Of a DNA stretch of 64,000 bases, positions 8,004 through 58,304 are shown one piece after another (the stretch's first letter is position 1; each line of letters starts with the position of its first letter). The DNA lies in sequence record MF327007; one strand, given 5' to 3'. The notes under the pieces were generated by a model that worked only from the letters and a program-made list of their open reading frames with translations, searched no databases and was not told the origin of the DNA. This DNA is from Shigella phage Sf21. Both the position numbers and the translations under genes were made by a program.

Positions 8004-8474
8004 TTAATCATGTGTCCACACCCCATCGGTATTTGACCAAAGTCGCTGATTATCTGATCCTCGCCACAGCTTTTTGGTCGGAAGATTTTTCTCATACTTC
8101 CCATCAATAATAACATCAACATATTTAAGCATTTCTAGTTGTTTAATATCTTCAAACTTATATCCTGTCCACAACCAAATGCTTTTATTGGGATAAAGAT
8201 TTTTAATAGTTTGAACCACAGAGTGAATCACGTCTCTGTTATCAGGATAGAGAGGGTCACCTCCGGTTATAGTCAATCCTTCTATATAATCATTATTCAA
8301 ACATTCAATTAATTGTTCTAGTGTTTCACCAGTGAATGGAACACCATTTCTAGCATTCCATGTTGATTTATTATAACACCCTTCACATTTATGCAAACAA
8401 CCTGTAACGAAAAGAACGGTCCTGCAGCCAGGACCATTAACAAAATCGCAAGGATAAAATCTATCATAATTCAT
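8004..8474 (-). CDS. nrdG: Anaerobic ribonucleotide reductase activating enzyme
   Basis: 156 aa; radical-SAM cysteine cluster CLHKCEGC; stop overlaps nrdD. Confidence 0.9.
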   Translation of the reverse strand: MNYDRFYPCDFVNGPGCRTVLFVTGCLHKCEGCYNKSTWNARNGVPFTGETLEQLIECLNNDYIEGLTITGGDPLYPDNRDVIHSVVQTIKNLYPNKSIWLWTGYKFEDIKQLEMLKYVDVIIDGKYEKNLPTKKLWRGSDNQRLWSNTDGVWTHD

Positions 8475-11949: not shown

Positions 11950-12128
11950 TTAGAAATAGACTTTTCGCCATTAGAATAATAAACTTCGAGTTTAGCACGA
12001 TTATTTTTAATTTGAATAACCTTGGCTGTCATCAAAGTTCCATACCCATAATAAACTGCAACTTCATCACCTACATATACCGCGCTTCCGCGGTAATCAT
12101 GAATATAGTCAGTTCCTTCGAGCATCAT
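11913..12128 (-). CDS. Hypothetical protein (71 aa)
   Basis: ORF on gene strand. Confidence 0.5.
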   Translation of the reverse strand: MMLEGTDYIHDYRGSAVYVGDEVAVYYGYGTLMTAKVIQIKNNRAKLEVYYSNGEKSISKWKYGDCMVKLG

Positions 12129-12388
12129 TTAAAATATTCTCGCAGTTGGTCAAATCCACCAATATGACTTCCATCAGGAGCAAATACCTGAGGCATTGTC
12201 AAGCCGATTTGAGTATCACGACCTAGTTTAGTCAGAAGCTCAGCGATTTTCTCATCATCAAAAACACCTTTTTCCGGCATAATGTTGATAAATTCAAACG
12301 GCTGTTTCTTCACAGTCAAAAGACGTTTTGCATTATCGCAATACACGCATTTATGAATGTTGCTATCATAACCATATACTTTAAACAT
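12125..12388 (-). CDS. nrdC: Glutaredoxin/thioredoxin
   Basis: 87 aa; MFKVYGYDSNIHKCVYCDNAKRLL with CVYC active site. Confidence 0.9.
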   Translation of the reverse strand: MFKVYGYDSNIHKCVYCDNAKRLLTVKKQPFEFINIMPEKGVFDDEKIAELLTKLGRDTQIGLTMPQVFAPDGSHIGGFDQLREYFK

Positions 12389-12634: not shown

Positions 12635-13024
12635 TTAATCCAAAATATTATTAGGCATTGGTTGAACACTCACAAGTTCTTTAAAGAACTCAGTAGAGTC
12701 AGGCAATTTAACCATTTCCGGAGCATGCTTACTGAATTTATGTTTACATTGACGGCATTTATATTCAAGCTCTGGTTTACGCCAGTTAATCAACTGAACT
12801 TGTTCAGTACCGCATTCAGGGCAATTAGGAACGTTTTTAGAAGCTCTTTCACGTCGTTCAACCATAGCCATAATAGCATCCCATGCTGGAGGTTTAAAAT
12901 CTAAATCGTCGCAGCCGTGAATCTTTCCACGCATTTCCATATCATCTTCCTCACCAGCCATAATAATTTTAATTAAACTGGAATTACTTGAAGCTGCAAT
13001 GTCTTCTAATAAACGCTTTTTCAT
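12635..13024 (-). CDS. Hypothetical Zn-ribbon protein (129 aa)
   Basis: CPECGT...CRQCKHKF cysteine pairs. Confidence 0.55.
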
Positions 13025-13950
13025 TTCAATACCTCAATAGCATTACGTAAACCATTTGCTTTTGCATTAAGAGCTTTTAACAATTTGGTGTGTTCTGCAA
13101 TTTGGGCTTCAACTTCAATCAAACGGGCATTGAGATATTCACGTTCTTCACTCAGATTATCAACCTTTTCTACTTTAGGCTCTTTTACAACTGTCTTATA
13201 TGTATTAGGGTTCTTCAGTTTAATTAGAATGCGTGAACTGTATAACATTGAACCATTATCTTCGGTTTCGTCATACATTTCCACTACGTCCATAATTTTT
13301 AACATCATGCGGAGTTTATAAGACAACGAACGAATAGTTTTGTTGTGCTTATTAATTTCTTTAGCTGTCATGGTGCCAAGATTACGTGAGTAATAATAAG
13401 GAACCTGGATATTAATTAATACTGATGAACCACCTGGCTTGTGTGCTACTTCATCAGCAATAACCCAGTCCTTAACATGAACTGTATTTGTACGGTCATC
13501 GCCCGCGGTAAATAGTTTGCGAGCATGCTTAAAAAGCATATTCACTTGGTCATTGAATTGACAAGCAAATTTATCAGCAAATTTAGTTTCAGGAATGGTA
13601 GAAAACCAATCAGCCAAATGAGTCTTTTTAACATCATTAACAATAGTAAATTCAACCAAATCGGTTATAGATGTCTCAGATTTAATGAAGCTCGGCTTCA
13701 TAAAGTTTTTAATGTTCTCATGAGCTACAGTAGAAGATAACATACGAGAACGTTTAAACCATTCAAGCAAATTGCCTAACGAATGAGAATAAGCGTTTTG
13801 AGTATCTTTACAGATATGATTTTCCTGACCAACATATTGAAGGAAATCACGAAGAATATTATTGATTACTGCTCTGTGCCCGATCTGATAATTACGGTGT
13901 TTAGTAATAAGACTGTCAAAATAATCAATATAATGTTTACGAGTTTTCAT
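13021..13950 (-). CDS. Hypothetical protein (309 aa) with C-terminal coiled coil
   Basis: Long ORF; heptad-like C-terminus EEREYLNARLIEVEAQIAEHTKLLKALNAKANGL. Confidence 0.6.
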   Translation of the reverse strand: MKTRKHYIDYFDSLITKHRNYQIGHRAVINNILRDFLQYVGQENHICKDTQNAYSHSLGNLLEWFKRSRMLSSTVAHENIKNFMKPSFIKSETSITDLVEFTIVNDVKKTHLADWFSTIPETKFADKFACQFNDQVNMLFKHARKLFTAGDDRTNTVHVKDWVIADEVAHKPGGSSVLINIQVPYYYSRNLGTMTAKEINKHNKTIRSLSYKLRMMLKIMDVVEMYDETEDNGSMLYSSRILIKLKNPNTYKTVVKEPKVEKVDNLSEEREYLNARLIEVEAQIAEHTKLLKALNAKANGLRNAIEVLK

Positions 13951-14002
13951 ATTCTTCTCACTTGGTTAATGGTTTATACTCCGAGCCATCCTTGGCTTTA
14001 AA

Positions 14003-15004
14003 TTACTTAATTAACTGTAAAGCTTGTTCAAGACGATCAAGACGATTAACGGATTCTTCCCAAATCTTTTTAGCCTGCTCATATTCTTTCTGCGCTTTAT
14101 TAGAAATTTCTAGAACTTCTTTATAAGCTTTTTCTAGTGCAATAACTTCTGGACGAATTTCTACTGGTTCAGGCGAATCGTCAAGACATTCCATTAGTTC
14201 CTCAAGGGTAGTTTCTTCTTTAGGAGTATTCACAATTTCATCACATTTTTGTTGGTAAATTTCTTTATCAGTCGGTGAGTACGCACACTTTACTTCACGG
14301 AGACTAACTACAATTTTATATCCTTCCCAACCGCATATATTCTTAAAAGGATAAGTATGAATATTTTCTACTGTTTCCATACAAAGTAATGCGGTCTCTA
14401 ACTGACGAGTTATATCGCTAGCAATTGAGAAAAATTTATTAATGTTCTTTTGATTAGCTTCTGGTGTAAAAAATTCATAATTCACAAAAATAGCTGCTTT
14501 ATTTTTATCAAGCTCATATTCTTTTATGATAATCATATCAGAAGCCCAAGGATGGATTTGACGATAATCACCATAGCATAATTTAGAAGCTGATTTTAGA
14601 ATTTGCTTCTTGAAAAGTCTAAAATTACTAATCCAACGACGAGTAAAAATATTCTCAGGGTCTTCTTTATTATTAAGATGATAAGAATTAACATCACCGA
14701 ACCAACTGTATCCTACTACATCTTTAGTTCGTTTAATTTCTTTCCCAAATTTACCAAGAATATCTTGATTAACTAAATATGAAAGAAGACGAGAACCTTT
14801 AAAAGTTTCCTTAATATCATCTTTATATTCGCGACTAGAAATTTTATGAACTTCATGAATAAATTTGCTTGAAGAAACAATACTTGCATCAATATTATTG
14901 AGCCATTGATTGATAATGGAAATAACACTATTCTGACTAAACACAGGTTTAACTTTATCATCAATAACGCTATTGAATGATTTGATATATTCGTTACGAG
15001 TCAT
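14003..15004 (-). CDS. Hypothetical protein (333 aa) with C-terminal coiled coil
   Basis: Start set at the Met preceded by a GAGGAG Shine-Dalgarno (ORF track extends to 15055); coiled-coil C-terminus. Confidence 0.6.
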   Translation of the reverse strand: MTRNEYIKSFNSVIDDKVKPVFSQNSVISIINQWLNNIDASIVSSSKFIHEVHKISSREYKDDIKETFKGSRLLSYLVNQDILGKFGKEIKRTKDVVGYSWFGDVNSYHLNNKEDPENIFTRRWISNFRLFKKQILKSASKLCYGDYRQIHPWASDMIIIKEYELDKNKAAIFVNYEFFTPEANQKNINKFFSIASDITRQLETALLCMETVENIHTYPFKNICGWEGYKIVVSLREVKCAYSPTDKEIYQQKCDEIVNTPKEETTLEELMECLDDSPEPVEIRPEVIALEKAYKEVLEISNKAQKEYEQAKKIWEESVNRLDRLEQALQLIK

Positions 15005-15061
15005 ATTAATCTCCTCAGTAGAAAGTAAGAACATTATACCACATCCTTGTGGCAAAGTAAA

Positions 15062-16075
15062 CTAGTTTAGTGCATTGTTCAGTTTAGAACGTTGCTTCGT
15101 AAGATTTTTGACTTTTTCTTGAGCTTTTTCTAGCATCTTTTCAGCTTCTAACACTTCATTAGTTGCTTTAACGAGTTCATCATCTACTGCCTTGATAGAC
15201 TTCTCAATCGCATCCGCGTGCCATTTTTCAACAGGTTTAAAACTCGGATTTTCAACAGGAAGAAAATTCACTTTATTGAATTTCCATGTATCTTTATTAC
15301 CTGAACTATACATCCAAAATTTAGGATCGTTTGATGAGTAATTGGATAAATTTAAGATATCTTGCACTTCCTGCTTTTTCTCTTGCGGGACTTCGTCCTT
15401 TCTCAAAAAATCGTATTTAAATGAAACGATCATATCAAGTTCATACGTTGTTGTATGTTCCCAATTTCGCTCAAAATGAGGTAAAATCTTAGACTGAACC
15501 GCGGCAACTACATCCATATACTTAAATGCTTCTGTCAACTGTGATTTAAGGCATTCACAAATTGAAAGAGAATTTTTTGTATTAGGTTTAAAGCTAATTC
15601 GTGCAGTTCTGTTATTTTCTTTTAATGGTCTTACTTCCATCTGAAGAGTATAACCATCAAATTTCAGATTCTTTAAGTTAATATCAGAACCTTTTAATCG
15701 ACTAGCCGTCGACAAAATTTGCTTTAATTGTTTACGGAATAGAGCAATAAATCTCCACTCAATACGATAATGATTTGGATTAAAAAATCCAGATGATAAA
15801 TCAACCTTACTCTGACCAACGCCTTGAACAAATAGAGGATTTTTATAATCAATAGTTTTACAGAAATCGGTGAGCTGTTCACGAGCAGTCATTTGAGTAA
15901 TATACCCAGCTTCATTAAAATTACGCACCCATTCACTGCTGTTCAAATGTTTAAAGGCATGAATTGAACAATTAACTTTACCAAGGTCTAAATTATTTTC
16001 ACACAAAAATGTCATAGCATCACGAGTATAGCTGGCATTACGAACCATATCTTCAATTTGAGAACGAGTTTTCAT
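15062..16075 (-). CDS. Hypothetical protein (337 aa) with C-terminal coiled coil
   Basis: Long ORF; coiled-coil C-terminus. Confidence 0.6.
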   Translation of the reverse strand: MKTRSQIEDMVRNASYTRDAMTFLCENNLDLGKVNCSIHAFKHLNSSEWVRNFNEAGYITQMTAREQLTDFCKTIDYKNPLFVQGVGQSKVDLSSGFFNPNHYRIEWRFIALFRKQLKQILSTASRLKGSDINLKNLKFDGYTLQMEVRPLKENNRTARISFKPNTKNSLSICECLKSQLTEAFKYMDVVAAVQSKILPHFERNWEHTTTYELDMIVSFKYDFLRKDEVPQEKKQEVQDILNLSNYSSNDPKFWMYSSGNKDTWKFNKVNFLPVENPSFKPVEKWHADAIEKSIKAVDDELVKATNEVLEAEKMLEKAQEKVKNLTKQRSKLNNALN

Positions 16076-16083
16076 AGTGTTCC

Positions 16084-16986
16084 TTAAGATTTAAGTAAAT
16101 CAACAATTTTAATTAATTTTTCACGCTCAGATTTAGCTTTACTACTCAATCCAGATAGTCTGAAAATTTCATCGTCATATTGTTGAATAGAAATATTCAG
16201 CTCTTCAATTTGCTTATTAAAATAATCAATTTGTTCAGAATGTTTTTCGTTACTACGAACTGGTACAGGTTTTGTAGGCAATTTAGTTGAACTGGATTCA
16301 TCCGGGCGATAAATTAAAATACAACTTGAACCAATCGGACATTTAGCACCAGATGAATATTCTAATGTTCCGGCTTCTTTTAAAACTTCAAAAGCTAAAC
16401 AGAGATGATGCCCCATATTAACATAATCTGTAGAGTGAGCTCTGATATAATAATCATCGCCACGAATACTAAATTTAAAGCATTTAAGGTCTTCTGTATT
16501 ATTAGTTTTAAAAATCATCTGTTTATCTAAACCTTTAGCTAATCGAGCGCCTAATGCTAATAATCGTCGTTGATTTTCCCACAAATCTGCGATCATTTGG
16601 TCAAATGATAATTTCGGCATTAGTCGACCATAAAGGTCATATCCTTTATTATAATTGCGAAGGATTTCACTCGCATTAATACGAGACAACGCTCCAATTT
16701 TATTAAGGGCTTTCATGATGCGATTAGATAAACCCATTCCAGACCCATTTGTTCGTTGTAAATGTTTTTCTAATCCAAATCCAATATCAACTTTAAATTT
16801 ATCTAAAATTTCAGCATGAACATCTCTGTTAATAACATTCAAATCCAAAGTTGGGTTAAATCTATGAAAAAATTTATCTGGCTCTCCACGACGAAGTACA
16901 GTCCATTCATTTAATTTTTTATTAACTAAAGATTTAATTACTGCATTGACATTATTAATTACTACTGACATATTTTTCTCACTCAA
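16084..16986 (-). CDS. Hypothetical protein (300 aa) with C-terminal coiled coil
   Basis: Long ORF; coiled-coil C-terminus. Confidence 0.6.
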   Translation of the reverse strand: MSEKNMSVVINNVNAVIKSLVNKKLNEWTVLRRGEPDKFFHRFNPTLDLNVINRDVHAEILDKFKVDIGFGLEKHLQRTNGSGMGLSNRIMKALNKIGALSRINASEILRNYNKGYDLYGRLMPKLSFDQMIADLWENQRRLLALGARLAKGLDKQMIFKTNNTEDLKCFKFSIRGDDYYIRAHSTDYVNMGHHLCLAFEVLKEAGTLEYSSGAKCPIGSSCILIYRPDESSSTKLPTKPVPVRSNEKHSEQIDYFNKQIEELNISIQQYDDEIFRLSGLSSKAKSEREKLIKIVDLLKS

Positions 16987-17387
16987 TTTTCAATTTTACT
17001 AAATACACAGAATATGATGGAAAAGACTATATAAGCACCGCATACAGATTGAACTAATACCATTCCAAAGAACCAAACAATATTATCAAACAATGTCTGT
17101 TTTACGTCGAAAGGACGTAAACTTACAGTAATATTATCGCCTTTTTCTATTGATGAATACATCTCTGGTGAAATATATTCACTAAATCTATAACCGTCTT
17201 TGAGTTCATATACGGCAATAAACGATAAACTAGACCCCTTTCCTTGAGTTCCTGTAAGGGTATTAACTACAGTAACATCATAATCTTTATAATGCATATA
17301 ATCATTAATTGCATAATAACCATATGCAACTACTACACATAAACAACATATCAATAAATTCAATCTTTTAATTATCAACTGTTTCAT
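16983..17387 (-). CDS. Membrane protein (134 aa)
   Basis: N- and C-terminal hydrophobic helices. Confidence 0.55.
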   Translation of the reverse strand: MKQLIIKRLNLLICCLCVVVAYGYYAINDYMHYKDYDVTVVNTLTGTQGKGSSLSFIAVYELKDGYRFSEYISPEMYSSIEKGDNITVSLRPFDVKQTLFDNIVWFFGMVLVQSVCGAYIVFSIIFCVFSKIEN

Positions 17388-17442: not shown

Positions 17443-17970
17443 TTATGCGAGTACCGTCTTTAACCGTTCTTCAAATTTCCGAAGAGTGTTCTGGCGTTCA
17501 GCTCTTTGCTTTTTATAAGTTTCAATACGCTCTGAAATGAGAGTGTATCGTTCATTTACTGATTCTTTCATAAAATCAGGAATTTCACGAGAAGCTTTAA
17601 TCTCGTCAAATTTATCAATAACTGCTTGCTCTTCAGCAATTAAGTTATCATACATCAAAATATCTTTCTTGATGAACTCAATATCTTCTTGAGTTACACG
17701 AGATAATTTAGATGCTTTATCCTTTTTGTACTGTTCGTTAGTATCACGAGACCAGTGTAATGTACGATTTTTATTCGTATTCTTGTAAATTTCTACAATA
17801 CCAATCTCATCGATAATAACGATCCAATTCCAACGAGATTTGTAAATTTGTCCTCCGTCAACCGTGATTTCACCTCCGATTGAGATGTCATTAAAGAACT
17901 TGCTTTGTGCTTCAGATTTAAATTTACCATCGTTGTAATTTACCAGGTTGAAAATATCTTTAGCGTTCAT
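17443..17970 (-). CDS. Hypothetical protein (175 aa)
   Basis: ORF 29 nt downstream of an early-type promoter. Confidence 0.6.
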   Translation of the reverse strand: MNAKDIFNLVNYNDGKFKSEAQSKFFNDISIGGEITVDGGQIYKSRWNWIVIIDEIGIVEIYKNTNKNRTLHWSRDTNEQYKKDKASKLSRVTQEDIEFIKKDILMYDNLIAEEQAVIDKFDEIKASREIPDFMKESVNERYTLISERIETYKKQRAERQNTLRKFEERLKTVLA

Positions 17971-17998: not shown

Positions 17999-18028
17999 AT
18001 AGTACCACAGAGGAACAGTCTTGTAAAC
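17999..18028 (-). promoter_or_regulatory. Early promoter (GTTTAC -35, 18-bp spacer, TACTAT -10)
   Basis: Minus-strand GTTTAC and TACTAT with A-rich upstream element; drives 17443-17970. Confidence 0.65.
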
Positions 18029-18434: not shown

Positions 18435-19403
18435 TTATTTCAGAAGAGTAACCTCAGCGATTTCTTCCCAACCGTTTTTGTCGGTCATAATAAAGTCAGC
18501 AAGATAAAGAGCAGTACGCAGTGAAACATTGCGTAAACGATTAACATTGACTTTCATCCATGATAATGCTTTATAAGTTTCTTCATCAGAAAGACCGCGT
18601 TTTTGCATCATGTCAGTTGAAAGAATAACATCTTCAACCCTGACCATAATTTCTTCATTAGTGTGAACACCCAAATCTAAATAAACTGAGCGGGACACTA
18701 ATGCTTGTAAATGTGGAGCAAGTTTAGTACCACGGTCTAATTCGCGGTCAATATCAACGTTTGTGATAAAAACAATCGTTCCTTTAAATTCAAACTCACG
18801 CTCAATGCCTTTTTCTTCTAAGTAAGAAGATGCGGTGCTCCAGCAGACTTTACGGGTCTCTCCAGTGTCCAGAGCAGCTTTCAGAAGATTAAGAATGTCC
18901 ATATCAGAGAAAACATCCACATCATCAATCAAAAGGACAGAATTCTCTTCACGATTATTCCAAAGCTGTTCATAAAGACCGATACCAGAGATTTTACCAT
19001 TAATGCTTTTATACTCAATGTATCCAATGTCATTTGCTTTATTTAAAGCTTTATCTAAAGAATACGTTTTACCAATACCCGCCGCACCAGAGATAATTAA
19101 TGAACGAATGTTTCCGTTAATAATACCATTCGTCATCATTCCCATAACATTAAATCTTTTATTAATGCGGGTTTTCATATCTTCATATGATTCTTTAACT
19201 TCTTCAACTTTTACACCATCATATGAAATGTCTGATTTGTAAACCCAAACACCGCGACGCTTACCGTCAATTTCAACAAAAACTTTACCATCTCCTTGTG
19301 CATCTACCGGAGCATTATCTGGGAACCATTCACCTAAGAGCTCAAAAGTTCCAGAGATTTCTTTACCGAAGTAGATACCCTTATTGATAGTTACAGTTTT
19401 CAT
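18435..19403 (-). CDS. P-loop NTPase (AAA-like ATPase), unknown function
   Basis: Walker A GAAGIGKTYS and Walker B VLLIDDVD; start set at MKTVTINKG, preceded by SD and an early promoter. Confidence 0.7.
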   Translation of the reverse strand: MKTVTINKGIYFGKEISGTFELLGEWFPDNAPVDAQGDGKVFVEIDGKRRGVWVYKSDISYDGVKVEEVKESYEDMKTRINKRFNVMGMMTNGIINGNIRSLIISGAAGIGKTYSLDKALNKANDIGYIEYKSINGKISGIGLYEQLWNNREENSVLLIDDVDVFSDMDILNLLKAALDTGETRKVCWSTASSYLEEKGIEREFEFKGTIVFITNVDIDRELDRGTKLAPHLQALVSRSVYLDLGVHTNEEIMVRVEDVILSTDMMQKRGLSDEETYKALSWMKVNVNRLRNVSLRTALYLADFIMTDKNGWEEIAEVTLLK

Positions 19404-19438
19404 TTTATTCTCCAAATCCGTATCAGTTGATAGTTGTA

Positions 19439-19468
19439 TAGTACCATAAAGCTTTATGCTTGTAAACC
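19439..19468 (-). promoter_or_regulatory. Early promoter (GTTTAC -35, 18-bp spacer, TACTAT -10)
   Basis: Same architecture; drives the ATPase gene 18435-19403. Confidence 0.65.
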
Positions 19469-19491
19469 GTTTTGTGAAAAAATTTTGAAAT

Positions 19492-19517
19492 AAAAAAAGG
19501 GAGCCCGAAGGCTCCCT
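19492..19517 (-). terminator. UUCG-tetraloop terminator (minus strand)
   Basis: Minus strand GGGAGCC-UUCG-GGCUCCC followed by seven U. Confidence 0.75.
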
Positions 19518-19518
19518 A

Positions 19519-20532
19519 TCATTTATAATAACTTCGGTGGTTTTCAAGATAAACCCTCTCAAGGAAGTCATCCCAGAAACCCATGTCTACTTTTTGCTGC
19601 ATACCGTTCTTAGAAGCTTCAATGGATGCTGCTTCTACTTGATCGACCACATCTTCCAAAAACTCTTGAACCGTTTTAAATGGATGTTTACCCAACTTCA
19701 CGTCGAGAATAAATGGAGCGTCTTGAAGTGGATAGACTAAGTCACCAGTTTTGTAAATTTCCAATAGTTGGAGTCCACCACGACAAGCATGACTCAGAGC
19801 TTTCCAGTCAATGCCTTCATTGGCTTCAGCCTTACGAGCGCGTTCACCATATTCAGCATCTAATTTGTTCAGTGACTGCTTAAGCTCAATAAGAGAAAGA
19901 GTTGTCTGATATTTACGACCCAACACAGTGTAGAACGTTTGTGGGCCTGTTTTCTCATGATTATGGAACACCCATTCACAGAATTCGTTTTCTGGAAGAC
20001 GATGCTTAATATCTTCAACTTTAGTACGACGCTGCTTAATGGAACCGTCTTCTTGGTAATCAACCCATTGCTCAGGGATTTGATTAACTACTTTCAATAC
20101 ATCACGTAATGCAGCCAAACGAGAACCCTTGACGCCGTATTTAGAAGCTTGCTTGCGGACATATCCTAAATATGATTTCATGTTAGTCGTATAAAAACGA
20201 GAACGGTTGTCTTGAATAAACTTCCACACATCAGGCAAATCAGATTTAACCACTAGTTCAGGTGGAGTGTGAAGCATATCTAATGCTACAGTTTCACCAT
20301 CTGCTGCTAATTTAAAGAAATATTTAAGACTGTATAGTTCATGGTCAATATCATCTTTAGTGTTTTTAGATGATGTGTTGTTAGTGTTTTTACTCATGTG
20401 CTCTTTAACATTTCCAATAAGAATATCACGAGCAGGAGGAACAAAGATTTCTTTAAAATCTACATCAGATTCTGGGGTAGAAGTTCCATAAAGATGACTA
20501 CCAAAATAGCTTTTCATTACTGTTTTCATCAT
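19519..20532 (-). CDS. Predicted nucleotidyltransferase-fold protein (337 aa)
   Basis: GS-x9-SDVD motif (GSHLYGTSTPESDVDF) typical of Pol-beta superfamily nucleotidyltransferases; followed by a UUCG hairpin with U-run. Confidence 0.6.
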   Translation of the reverse strand: MMKTVMKSYFGSHLYGTSTPESDVDFKEIFVPPARDILIGNVKEHMSKNTNNTSSKNTKDDIDHELYSLKYFFKLAADGETVALDMLHTPPELVVKSDLPDVWKFIQDNRSRFYTTNMKSYLGYVRKQASKYGVKGSRLAALRDVLKVVNQIPEQWVDYQEDGSIKQRRTKVEDIKHRLPENEFCEWVFHNHEKTGPQTFYTVLGRKYQTTLSLIELKQSLNKLDAEYGERARKAEANEGIDWKALSHACRGGLQLLEIYKTGDLVYPLQDAPFILDVKLGKHPFKTVQEFLEDVVDQVEAASIEASKNGMQQKVDMGFWDDFLERVYLENHRSYYK

Positions 20533-56846: not shown

Positions 56847-58304
56847 ATGATTGAATTAAAAGAGTTACCTTTTGTTGATAGCGTTCCTGACGAAGGTCAG
56901 GAACGTATTTCATGGATTAAAAATGGTGAAGAAATATTAGGAGCTAGTACTAAGTATGGAAATGATGGATCAATGAATAGACCAATTGTTTCCGTGTTTA
57001 AAAACGTCGAAGTTCTTGATGAAAATGTGGGAATTCTTAAAACTGCCATTGAAACATCACAGAAAGATATTAAAACAATTCAAGGAGTTTTAGATGTATC
57101 AGGAGATATAGAAGCACTATCGCAGATCAGTGTTAATAAAAATGACATATCGAATTTAAAGACACTTACCAGTGAACACACTGATATATTAACTGGAACC
57201 AATAATACAGTTGACAAAATTATTGCTGATATAGGTCCATTTAATGATGAAGAAAACTCTGTTTATAGAACAATTAGAAATGATTTATTGTGGATTAAAC
57301 AGGAATTAGGACAATATTCTGGCCAAGACATTAACGGTCTTCCTGTTGTTGGTAATGCTAGCACAGGAATGAAACACAGAATAATAACAAATAGTACATT
57401 ATTATCTTCACAGGGCATTCGTTTAAGCGAATTAGAAAATAAATTTACTGAATCTGACGTAGGATCATTAACTGTTGAAGTTGGTAAATTACGTGATGAA
57501 CTTGGTAATAAACCGGTAGATTTTGGACCAAATATTTATAATAGATTAAACACTATAGATGATAAACAAACTTTAATAAATTCTGATATAGCAGAAATTA
57601 AATCTTCTATTGGATACCCAGAAAATGTTTCTATAATAACAGAAATTAATAATAACAAAAGTAGCATTGAAGCTATTAATAATGAATTAAATCAGAGTGA
57701 AGGTGTTAAACAACGCTTAACGGCTATTGAAACTTCTATAGGTTCAGATGATATTCCTTCTAGCATTAAAGGAAAAATTAAAAATCACACAACTTCTATT
57801 GAGTCTTTAAACGGAATTGTTGGTGAAAACACTTCGTCTGGTTTAAGAGCGAATGTTTCGTGGTTAAATCAAATTGTTGGAACTGACTCCAGCGGAGGAC
57901 AACCGTCTCCTTCTGGATCTCTATTAAATAAAGTTTCAGTGCTTGAAGGAGAAGTTTCAGTTTTAAACAATAATGTTCAAAATATACAAGTTGAAATAGG
58001 AAATAATAGAACAGGAATTAAAGGTCAAGTTATTGAACTTACTTCACTTATAAATGGAAATAATCCTGACGGATCAACTGTTGAAGAACGAGGATTAACT
58101 AATTCTGTAAAAACGAATGAAACCAACATTGCGGCAGTCACACATGAAGTAAATACAGCTAAAGACAATATATCCTCTTTACAGAGCAGCGTTCAAGCTC
58201 TACAAGAAGCAGGTTATATTCCTGAAGCTCCAAAAGATGGCCAAGCTTACGTTCGTAAAGACGGCGAATGGGTACTACTTTCTACCTTTTTATCACCAGC
58301 ATAA
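56847..58304 (+). CDS. wac: Fibritin (whiskers, neck)
   Basis: 485 aa; coiled-coil repeats; C-terminal foldon-like [27 protein letters not shown]. Confidence 0.92.

Follow-up and report, generated by a model that had tools for sequence, protein, structure and literature searches.

There are four large open reading frames (ORFs) in a row on one strand of a 64,000-nucleotide stretch of the genome of Shigella phage Sf21 (MF327007), called the window here. The locus raises the question of whether the four encoded proteins, each with a head and a coiled-coil-like tail, belong to one family, and what such a family could do for the phage. The ORFs are the orthologs of T4 nrdC.3, nrdC.4, nrdC.5, and nrdC.6, as identified by the T4 annotation and by alignments. 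Profile methods support the interpretation that they are distant, anciently diverged paralogs of one superfamily. One of them, nrdC.5, is the ortholog of the T4 protein that overcomes the defense protein Dsr1, and activity of the Sf21 allele is predicted from its 91% identity. Slightly better than an even chance is given to the overall interpretation that the genes are a tandem array of paralogs, transcribed early and dispensable, in T4-like phages, in which the heads would bind immune proteins and the tails would oligomerize.

The window comes from a Tequatrovirus (T4-like) genome: its bases 12900-17100 show 99.4% identity to those of Escherichia phages ES21 and ES19, and matches were found in 655 records of T4-like phages. 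Comparison with the T4 nrdC.x ORFs gave one-to-one orthology from nrdC.3 to nrdC.6, and the corresponding families are labeled A (nrdC.3), B (nrdC.4), C (nrdC.5), and D (nrdC.6). An earlier interpretation made from the letters of the window, the sequence-only reading, had placed four genes here. All are present and all are on the minus strand, and its outer end at 16986 overshoots by about 15 nucleotides. The nrdC.6 ORF can be read up to a TTG at 16986, giving 300 amino acids (aa), and this TTG overlaps the nrdC.7 stop codon. The T4-type ATG at 16971 is the more likely start, because this methionine is where the alignments to PHROG and T4 sequences start. The start of nrdC.4 is an ATG with a GAGGAG Shine-Dalgarno sequence.

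Three separate families of unknown function are represented in Pfam and PHROGs, with nrdC.3 and nrdC.4 together and nrdC.5 and nrdC.6 each apart. The curated homes are PF23882 for nrdC.5, PF26897 for nrdC.3 and nrdC.4, and PF26899 for nrdC.6, along with PHROGs 1435, 2351, and 2257. PF23882, a domain of unknown function (DUF7235), matched nrdC.5 over its full length (411 bits against a cut-off of 30, E 4e-123), and a scan of nrdC.3, nrdC.4, and nrdC.6 with it gave no match. Matches to phrog_1435 were found for nrdC.3 (E 1e-115) and nrdC.4 (E 2e-166), and to phrog_2257 for nrdC.6 (E 5e-153). In precomputed annotations, PF26897 is on all nrdC.4 homologs and PF26899 on all 105 nrdC.6 homologs. In many GenBank records, every nrdC.x gene, including nrdC.3 to nrdC.6, is labeled "thioredoxin". 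For these four the label is wrong and looks as if it was propagated from the gene names. The sole thioredoxin/glutaredoxin among the nrdC.x genes is nrdC itself (12125-12388).

The similarity among the four proteins is low. Pairwise BLAST of the four and their neighbors linked only nrdC.3 and nrdC.4 (25% identity over 229 aa), and nrdC.5 is about 15-25% identical to the other three. With the first, shallow family alignments, hhalign gave marginal links and bridging sequences were needed. A MAFFT alignment of all families, in which co-linear motifs line up, was searched as a profile through 1.84 billion representative proteins. It yielded only 26 proteins at E <= 0.001, including new divergent members of about 285-345 aa, and this very small family is seen only in T4-like phages. 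A bridging group, X, consists of P0232 from Klebsiella Marfavirus phages and of P0239 and P0242 from metagenomes. Full-length hhalign to group X scored 94% for nrdC.3, 95% for nrdC.4, and 97% for both nrdC.5 and nrdC.6. When the tails were cut and the heads alone were compared, the scores to group X were 52%, 93%, 83%, and 87% for nrdC.3, nrdC.4, nrdC.5, and nrdC.6, respectively. The pairwise profile alignment of the heads gave 98% for nrdC.3 and nrdC.4, and 89-90% for nrdC.4 and nrdC.5 (E 1.4e-6 over 149 columns). A hidden Markov model (HMM) built from group X only picked exactly these four from 163 window ORFs and nothing else (nrdC.6, E 1.8e-12; nrdC.5, 1.4e-8; nrdC.4, 1.8e-4; nrdC.3, 3e-3). 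Co-linear motifs are also common to the families: N-terminal M(K)TR, FxxSRxLSxxxAxxxLxxF, A(S/R)(K/R)LxxGD, LxxALxxMxxV, and terminal LxxA(I/L)xxLK.

Since direct links of nrdC.6 are not significant and the heads of nrdC.3 and group X reach only 52%, nrdC.6 is joined only via group X and nrdC.3 mainly via nrdC.4. The profiles point to nrdC.6 as the weakest link of the putative superfamily. The paralogous family proposed by the sequence-only reading is thus supported, by profile methods only and, for nrdC.6, through group X alone. A search for DNA-level repeats among the four genes, as signs of recent duplication or gene conversion, found just short chance-like matches and ATGAAAACTCGT, which is the gene start common to nrdC.3 and nrdC.5. 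The neighbor nrdC.8, which has a heptad tail too, was considered as a fifth member and ruled out (hhalign <=3%). The four T4 ORFs and the counter-defense role of one of them are already known. The apparent unity of the superfamily, with a conserved tail motif and joined via bridging sequences, is new here and is a modest addition.

All four proteins possess a head of about 225 aa with alpha and beta elements, a weakly conserved linker, and a C-terminal tail. It had been proposed that the proteins end in heptad-like segments of about 40 aa. The heptad character is confirmed, with a periodicity of 3.5 residues in all four families, and the length is 46-57 aa. Heptads were scored with a crude 28-residue scorer written for this work, not with COILS or MARCOIL, on the 65 ORFs of the window that encode 100 aa or more. 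The threshold of 9.3 is about the 99th percentile of shuffles. A C-terminal segment above it was found in only 4 of the 65, namely nrdC.3, nrdC.5, nrdC.6, and the neighbor nrdC.8, so that three of the four proteins pass; nrdC.4 scored 8.6 as a single sequence, slightly under the threshold. The positive control, fibritin (wac, 56847-58304), is a known coiled coil and had the top score of 11.7. In family-averaged hydrophobicity profiles, which draw on evolutionary conservation and not on one sequence, the peak falls at exactly 3.5 residues in all four tails (shuffle p 0.0055 for nrdC.3, <0.0005 for nrdC.4, 0.0005 for nrdC.5, and 0.006 for nrdC.6).

A terminal motif, (Q/E)RxKLxxA(I/L)xxLK, is found in all families and in group X, and in every family conservation is higher in the tail than in the head. 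Between Sf21 and T4, the nrdC.3 tail is 78% identical and the head 61%. In the nrdC.4 family, tails are 62-74% identical where heads are 23-25% (74% and 25% against P0121), and in the nrdC.6 family tails are 56-70% identical where heads are 27-56%. Tail-mediated oligomerization is plausible from the heptad periodicity and from tails that are modeled or expected as long helices. In the T4 reference, nrdC.6 (L002:12067-12894, equivalent to window 16084-16260) has a 1-nucleotide deletion, GAGCTG-ATATT versus GAGCTGAATATT. The reading frame is shifted immediately ahead of the tail, and the product is a protein of 275 aa that lacks it; the tail-coding DNA farther on is otherwise intact. The frameshift goes back either to a mutation that arose recently in the laboratory or to an old error in sequencing.

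The models obtained with AlphaFold2 are in keeping with this plan. In the nrdC.5 model (mean predicted local distance difference test, pLDDT, 69.5), one helix at 281-336 follows a disordered low-confidence stretch at 223-279. The nrdC.6 model (pLDDT 78) has a disordered stretch at 227-241 and then helices at 242-271 and 277-294 with a kink. The tail helices in the two models cover 50-56 residues. The structure check covered these two models and compared the order of their elements, which agrees: N-terminal helices, a helix pair with the GD motif, a beta-beta-alpha-beta-beta unit, the linker, and the tail. The alignment behind the nrdC.6 model held its own family only, and that behind the nrdC.5 model was the merged alignment of four families.

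Fold searches led back to T4-like phages. In BFVD, the nrdC.6 model matched uncharacterized 304-335 aa proteins of phages IME523, PM2, Acj61, Acj9, and Mineola. The nrdC.5 model had four significant matches, of which the best was a Mineola protein (E 7e-8). An uncharacterized 326-aa protein of Klebsiella phage Mineola was a neighbor of both models. A 175-aa protein of Klebsiella phage KPV15 was a weak match in both searches as well. At residues ~140-220 of the nrdC.5 model (window ~15416-15658), there were also many weak matches to tail-terminator, tail-completion, and head-tail connector proteins (E 0.004-0.04, target-normalized template modeling (TM) score 0.3-0.5), and none such with the nrdC.6 model. 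This likeness may be a chance similarity of a small alpha/beta unit, and it can also serve as a lead for the idea that NrdC.5 could be a structural-protein mimic.

Known folds and families gave little. Searches of the PDB by sequence, with the family profiles and with single nrdC.3, nrdC.4, and nrdC.5, found nothing significant, and neither did a fold search of the PDB with the nrdC.6 model (best E 0.017). H-NOX proteins recurred as weak fold matches of that model (TM 0.2-0.35) and were dismissed as insignificant. Scans of Pfam, NCBIfam, and PADLOC showed no informative family besides DUFs. Sub-threshold library matches to a PHL domain, the integrase N-terminal SAM-like domain or XerD N-terminus, BrxC, and PgrA were regarded as noise. 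In nrdC.3, residues 30-86 (window 13693-13863, minus strand) resemble the N-terminal SAM-like (core-binding) domain of tyrosine recombinases at a sub-threshold level, with E 0.12 in Pfam and 0.003-0.03 in NCBIfam (best NF001399, then XerD and XerC).

What the proteins can do is indicated by T4. A T4 deletion mutant does not plate on ECOR17 or on MG1655 with dsr1, and T4 nrdC.5 alone, supplied in trans, restores plating of the mutant on dsr1 cells (Srikant et al., 2022; PMC9391042). Dsr1 of Escherichia coli is reported to have a tetratricopeptide repeat sensor, for which the trigger is a phage major capsid protein (2026 preprint, PMC12803255). The T4 and Sf21 NrdC.5 proteins are alike in DUF7235, identity, neighboring genes, and an early-type promoter upstream; the Sf21 allele is 3 residues shorter at its end. 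Because T4 NrdC.5 overcomes Dsr1, nrdC.3, nrdC.4, and nrdC.6 are plausible counter-defense paralogs by analogy, and a literature search on these three found no functional work. The anti-defense effectors suggested by the sequence-only reading are supported for nrdC.5, through its T4 ortholog, and extend to the other three by inference.

Early expression is suggested by two promoters of the T4 early type, upstream of nrdC.4 and nrdC.8, which have the form GTTTAC-N14-GTGGTAnnAT in common. The annotation of phage ASO78A has T4-like early promoters at both equivalent sites. The nrdC.8 promoter probably drives nrdC.8-nrdC.7-nrdC.6-nrdC.5 as one putative transcript.

The proposed mechanism is as follows. 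The head, made of an N-terminal helical part and then the beta-beta-alpha-beta-beta unit, would be a specificity module that binds a host immune protein, and it is followed by a flexible linker and a slower-evolving heptad helix. The tails could form oligomers and so give higher avidity for multimeric targets. For the NrdC.5 head, the target would most likely be the sensor region of Dsr1 (WP_029488749.1 in E. coli), a SIR2-type nicotinamide adenine dinucleotide (NAD) hydrolase (NADase). NrdC.5, made early, could then occupy Dsr1 before the late capsid-protein trigger appears. The products of nrdC.3, nrdC.4, and nrdC.6 would be sister proteins against other host systems.

Several results weigh against this interpretation. 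Functional data are limited to NrdC.5 and take the form of genetic rescue. Direct hhalign of nrdC.6 against nrdC.3, nrdC.4, and nrdC.5 gave <=3%, with no direct profile similarity. The likeness of the nrdC.5 model is partly circular because of its merged alignment, and the confidence of that model is moderate. Neither BFVD search listed a recognizable nrdC.3, nrdC.4, or nrdC.5 entry, and the listing for the nrdC.5 model was without even the nrdC.5 family itself. The sequence and fold searches of the PDB gave no mechanism-pointing match to a known inhibitor or enzyme. In addition, the nrdC.6 tail appears dispensable, at least in the laboratory, because the frameshift in the T4 reference removes it.

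Three other explanations have to be weighed against the favored one. The ties of all four proteins to group X at 94-97%, heads-only links that are independent of tail composition, the specificity of the group X HMM for these four ORFs, the co-linear motifs with their N-terminal MKTR and C-terminal LK end, the identical order of secondary-structure elements in the nrdC.5 and nrdC.6 models, and a gene order kept across genera make it very improbable that the proteins are not homologous and arrived at a globular domain plus coiled coil by convergence, even though BLAST similarity is confined to nrdC.3 and nrdC.4, the direct hhalign scores of nrdC.6 are at most 3%, and Pfam and PHROGs keep three separate families. 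A role in host takeover or metabolism (nucleotide or NAD metabolism, or host transcription), with rescue from Dsr1 by NrdC.5 as an indirect effect, is unlikely. These are early genes that sit among the nucleotide-metabolism genes nrdC, nrdD, nrdG, and nrdH, the published evidence (PMC9391042) is genetic rescue and not binding, and rebuilding of NAD lets other phages beat NAD-depleting defenses. However, there is no enzyme-like match in Pfam, NCBIfam, or the PDB, no catalytic-looking residues are conserved across the families, and the rapid divergence of the heads and frequent gene loss are more in line with host-specific accessory genes than with core functions of takeover.

It is doubtful, though a possibility to keep in mind, that the tail is mainly a docking helix for one common partner, or pairs the paralogs with each other, so that variable heads would sit on a common adaptor. 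The greater conservation of tails over heads at every level of divergence (as with nrdC.4 and P0121), the terminal motif common to all families and group X, and P0244, a 173-aa protein with the exact nrdC.5 tail on an unrelated head, can all be read in this way, but a candidate partner is lacking, an ordinary coiled coil fits the heptad periodicity equally well, and tail-only remnants are explicable by simple deletions between adjoining paralogs. A further version is something of a long shot. It holds that the tail docks all paralogs on one hub while each head captures a different immune sensor, possibly by mimicking structural proteins; the hub is possibly a host protein, a phage protein, or a mixed bundle of the paralogs. 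If it were true, one phage locus would neutralize several pattern-recognition defenses by a single common mechanism.

The favored interpretation, an array of oligomerizing counter-defense paralogs, matters for several reasons. NrdC.5 is the only phage protein found that is reported to counter Dsr1 directly, and NAD-reconstitution pathways evade Dsr1 indirectly. The three neighbors of NrdC.5 would be ready counter-defense candidates in the best-studied phage. A division of labor, with specificity from the variable head and a common function from the conserved tail, is testable.

Known systems offer partial parallels. DSAD1, the inhibitor of DSR2, is also a phage protein against a SIR2-domain NADase defense protein and may be a functional analog; it was compared by description only, and likeness in sequence is not claimed. 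The tail tube, a structural protein of the phage, activates DSR2, and this system could serve as a model for a possible action of NrdC.5 on Dsr1. The T4 internal proteins IPI, IPII, and IPIII appear alike in design, as a paralogous set with a constant module and variable bodies against different host defenses; IPI acts against GmrSD and IPIII is needed on ECOR17. Their constant module is an N-terminal capsid-targeting sequence and the proteins are injected, whereas in nrdC.3-nrdC.6 it is the C-terminal heptad helix that stays constant, and expression of the genes begins early in infection. The two sets are unrelated in sequence.

Across T4-like phages, the array has one to four copies. Tequatroviruses have the order nrdC.6-nrdC.5-nrdC.4-nrdC.3, and the order nrdC.6-nrdC.5-nrdC.4(-nrdC.3) is kept in 13 viral contigs. 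Nine viral contigs (155-172 kb) of other T4-like phages keep this order for nrdC.6-, nrdC.5-, and nrdC.4-like genes and lack nrdC.3. In Mosigvirus ESCO47 there are two genes of the family, one nrdC.6-like and one nrdC.3-like. Just one gene, of the group X type, is present in Klebsiella phage Marfa and in Enterobacter phage IME523, where it lies immediately upstream of the nrdC.2 homolog. Growth of the array from a single ancestral copy is proposed here as a modest addition to what is known. The series from one copy in Klebsiella and Enterobacter phages to two, three, and four in coliphages can be a guide to how an anti-immune repertoire expands.

The heads behave as putative fast-evolving specificity modules, which is likewise a modest addition. 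Compared with T4, flanking proteins are 96-100% identical, nrdC.4 and nrdC.5 about 91%, and nrdC.3 61%, and nrdC.3 falls into three allele classes (>=90%, ~75%, and ~60% identity). Phage records with the gene number 652 for nrdC.3, 552 for nrdC.4, 583 for nrdC.5, and 740 for nrdC.6. Deletions and chimeras are common within the array, and this pattern of divergence and uneven presence is taken as accessory, arms-race behavior. ACG-C40 (L003:4805-5216) has a deletion from inside nrdC.5 to inside nrdC.3. In P0057, nrdC.5 is fused to the C-terminal half of nrdC.3, with the junction at an FN..VN microhomology. In Shigella phage Sf25, nrdC.6 is lengthened to 378 aa by a duplication within the gene (P0122), and nrdC.4 is broken into two ORFs in one viral contig (L010:7929-8982). 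Phages Manna and Pinarejo retain array tails alone. Near-identical T4-like phage proteins are also found in NCBI under Bacillus cereus (in a 171-kb contig) and Enterococcus faecalis (P0067, P0054, and P0092), probably as phage contamination of assemblies.

Table 1. Genes, tails, and promoters of the nrdC.3-nrdC.6 array in the window.
Feature	Position	Strand	Description
nrdC.3 ortholog, family A	13021..13950	-	309 aa; 61% aa identity to T4 NrdC.3
nrdC.3 tail	13024..13161	-	residues 264-309, end LRNAIEVLK; heptad score 10.1
nrdC.4 ortholog, family B	14003..15004	-	333 aa; 91.6% aa identity to T4 NrdC.4
nrdC.4 tail	14006..14146	-	residues 287-333, end LEQALQLIK
T4 early-type promoter GTTTAC-N14-GTGGTATAAT	15033..15061	-	upstream of nrdC.4
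nrdC.5 ortholog, family C	15062..16075	-	337 aa; 91% aa identity to T4 NrdC.5, full length
nrdC.5 tail	15065..15235	-	residues 281-337, end QRSKLNNALN; heptad score 10.5
nrdC.6 ortholog, family D	16084..16971	-	295 aa from ATG; 97% aa identity to T4
nrdC.6 tail	16087..16248	-	residues 242-295; helix, SGLSS kink, helix; end EREKLIKIVDLLKS
T4 early-type promoter GTTTAC-N14-GTGGTACTAT	17999..18028	-	upstream of nrdC.8

The neighboring genes, all on the minus strand, also show some features. The nrdC.2 homolog (12635-13024) is a conserved downstream neighbor of the nrdC.3-nrdC.6 family in every genus examined. It encodes 129 aa, compared with 104 aa in T4, is 78% identical to T4, and has a CxxC...CxxC zinc-ribbon signature (NCBIfam FmdB-type, E 2e-5, under the cut-off). 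The heptad segment of nrdC.8 lies at the C-terminus of a 175-aa protein (17443-17970). NrdG (8007-8474) is 79% identical to T4 NrdG where neighboring proteins are 97-100% identical, and by this comparison nrdG is another putative mosaic segment of the region. For nrdC.10 (18435-19571), the mechanical ORF is 378 aa long and the match to T4 NrdC.10 begins at 19403. The extension contains a strong terminator-like hairpin (19517-19498), and the real start of nrdC.10 is probably downstream of it.

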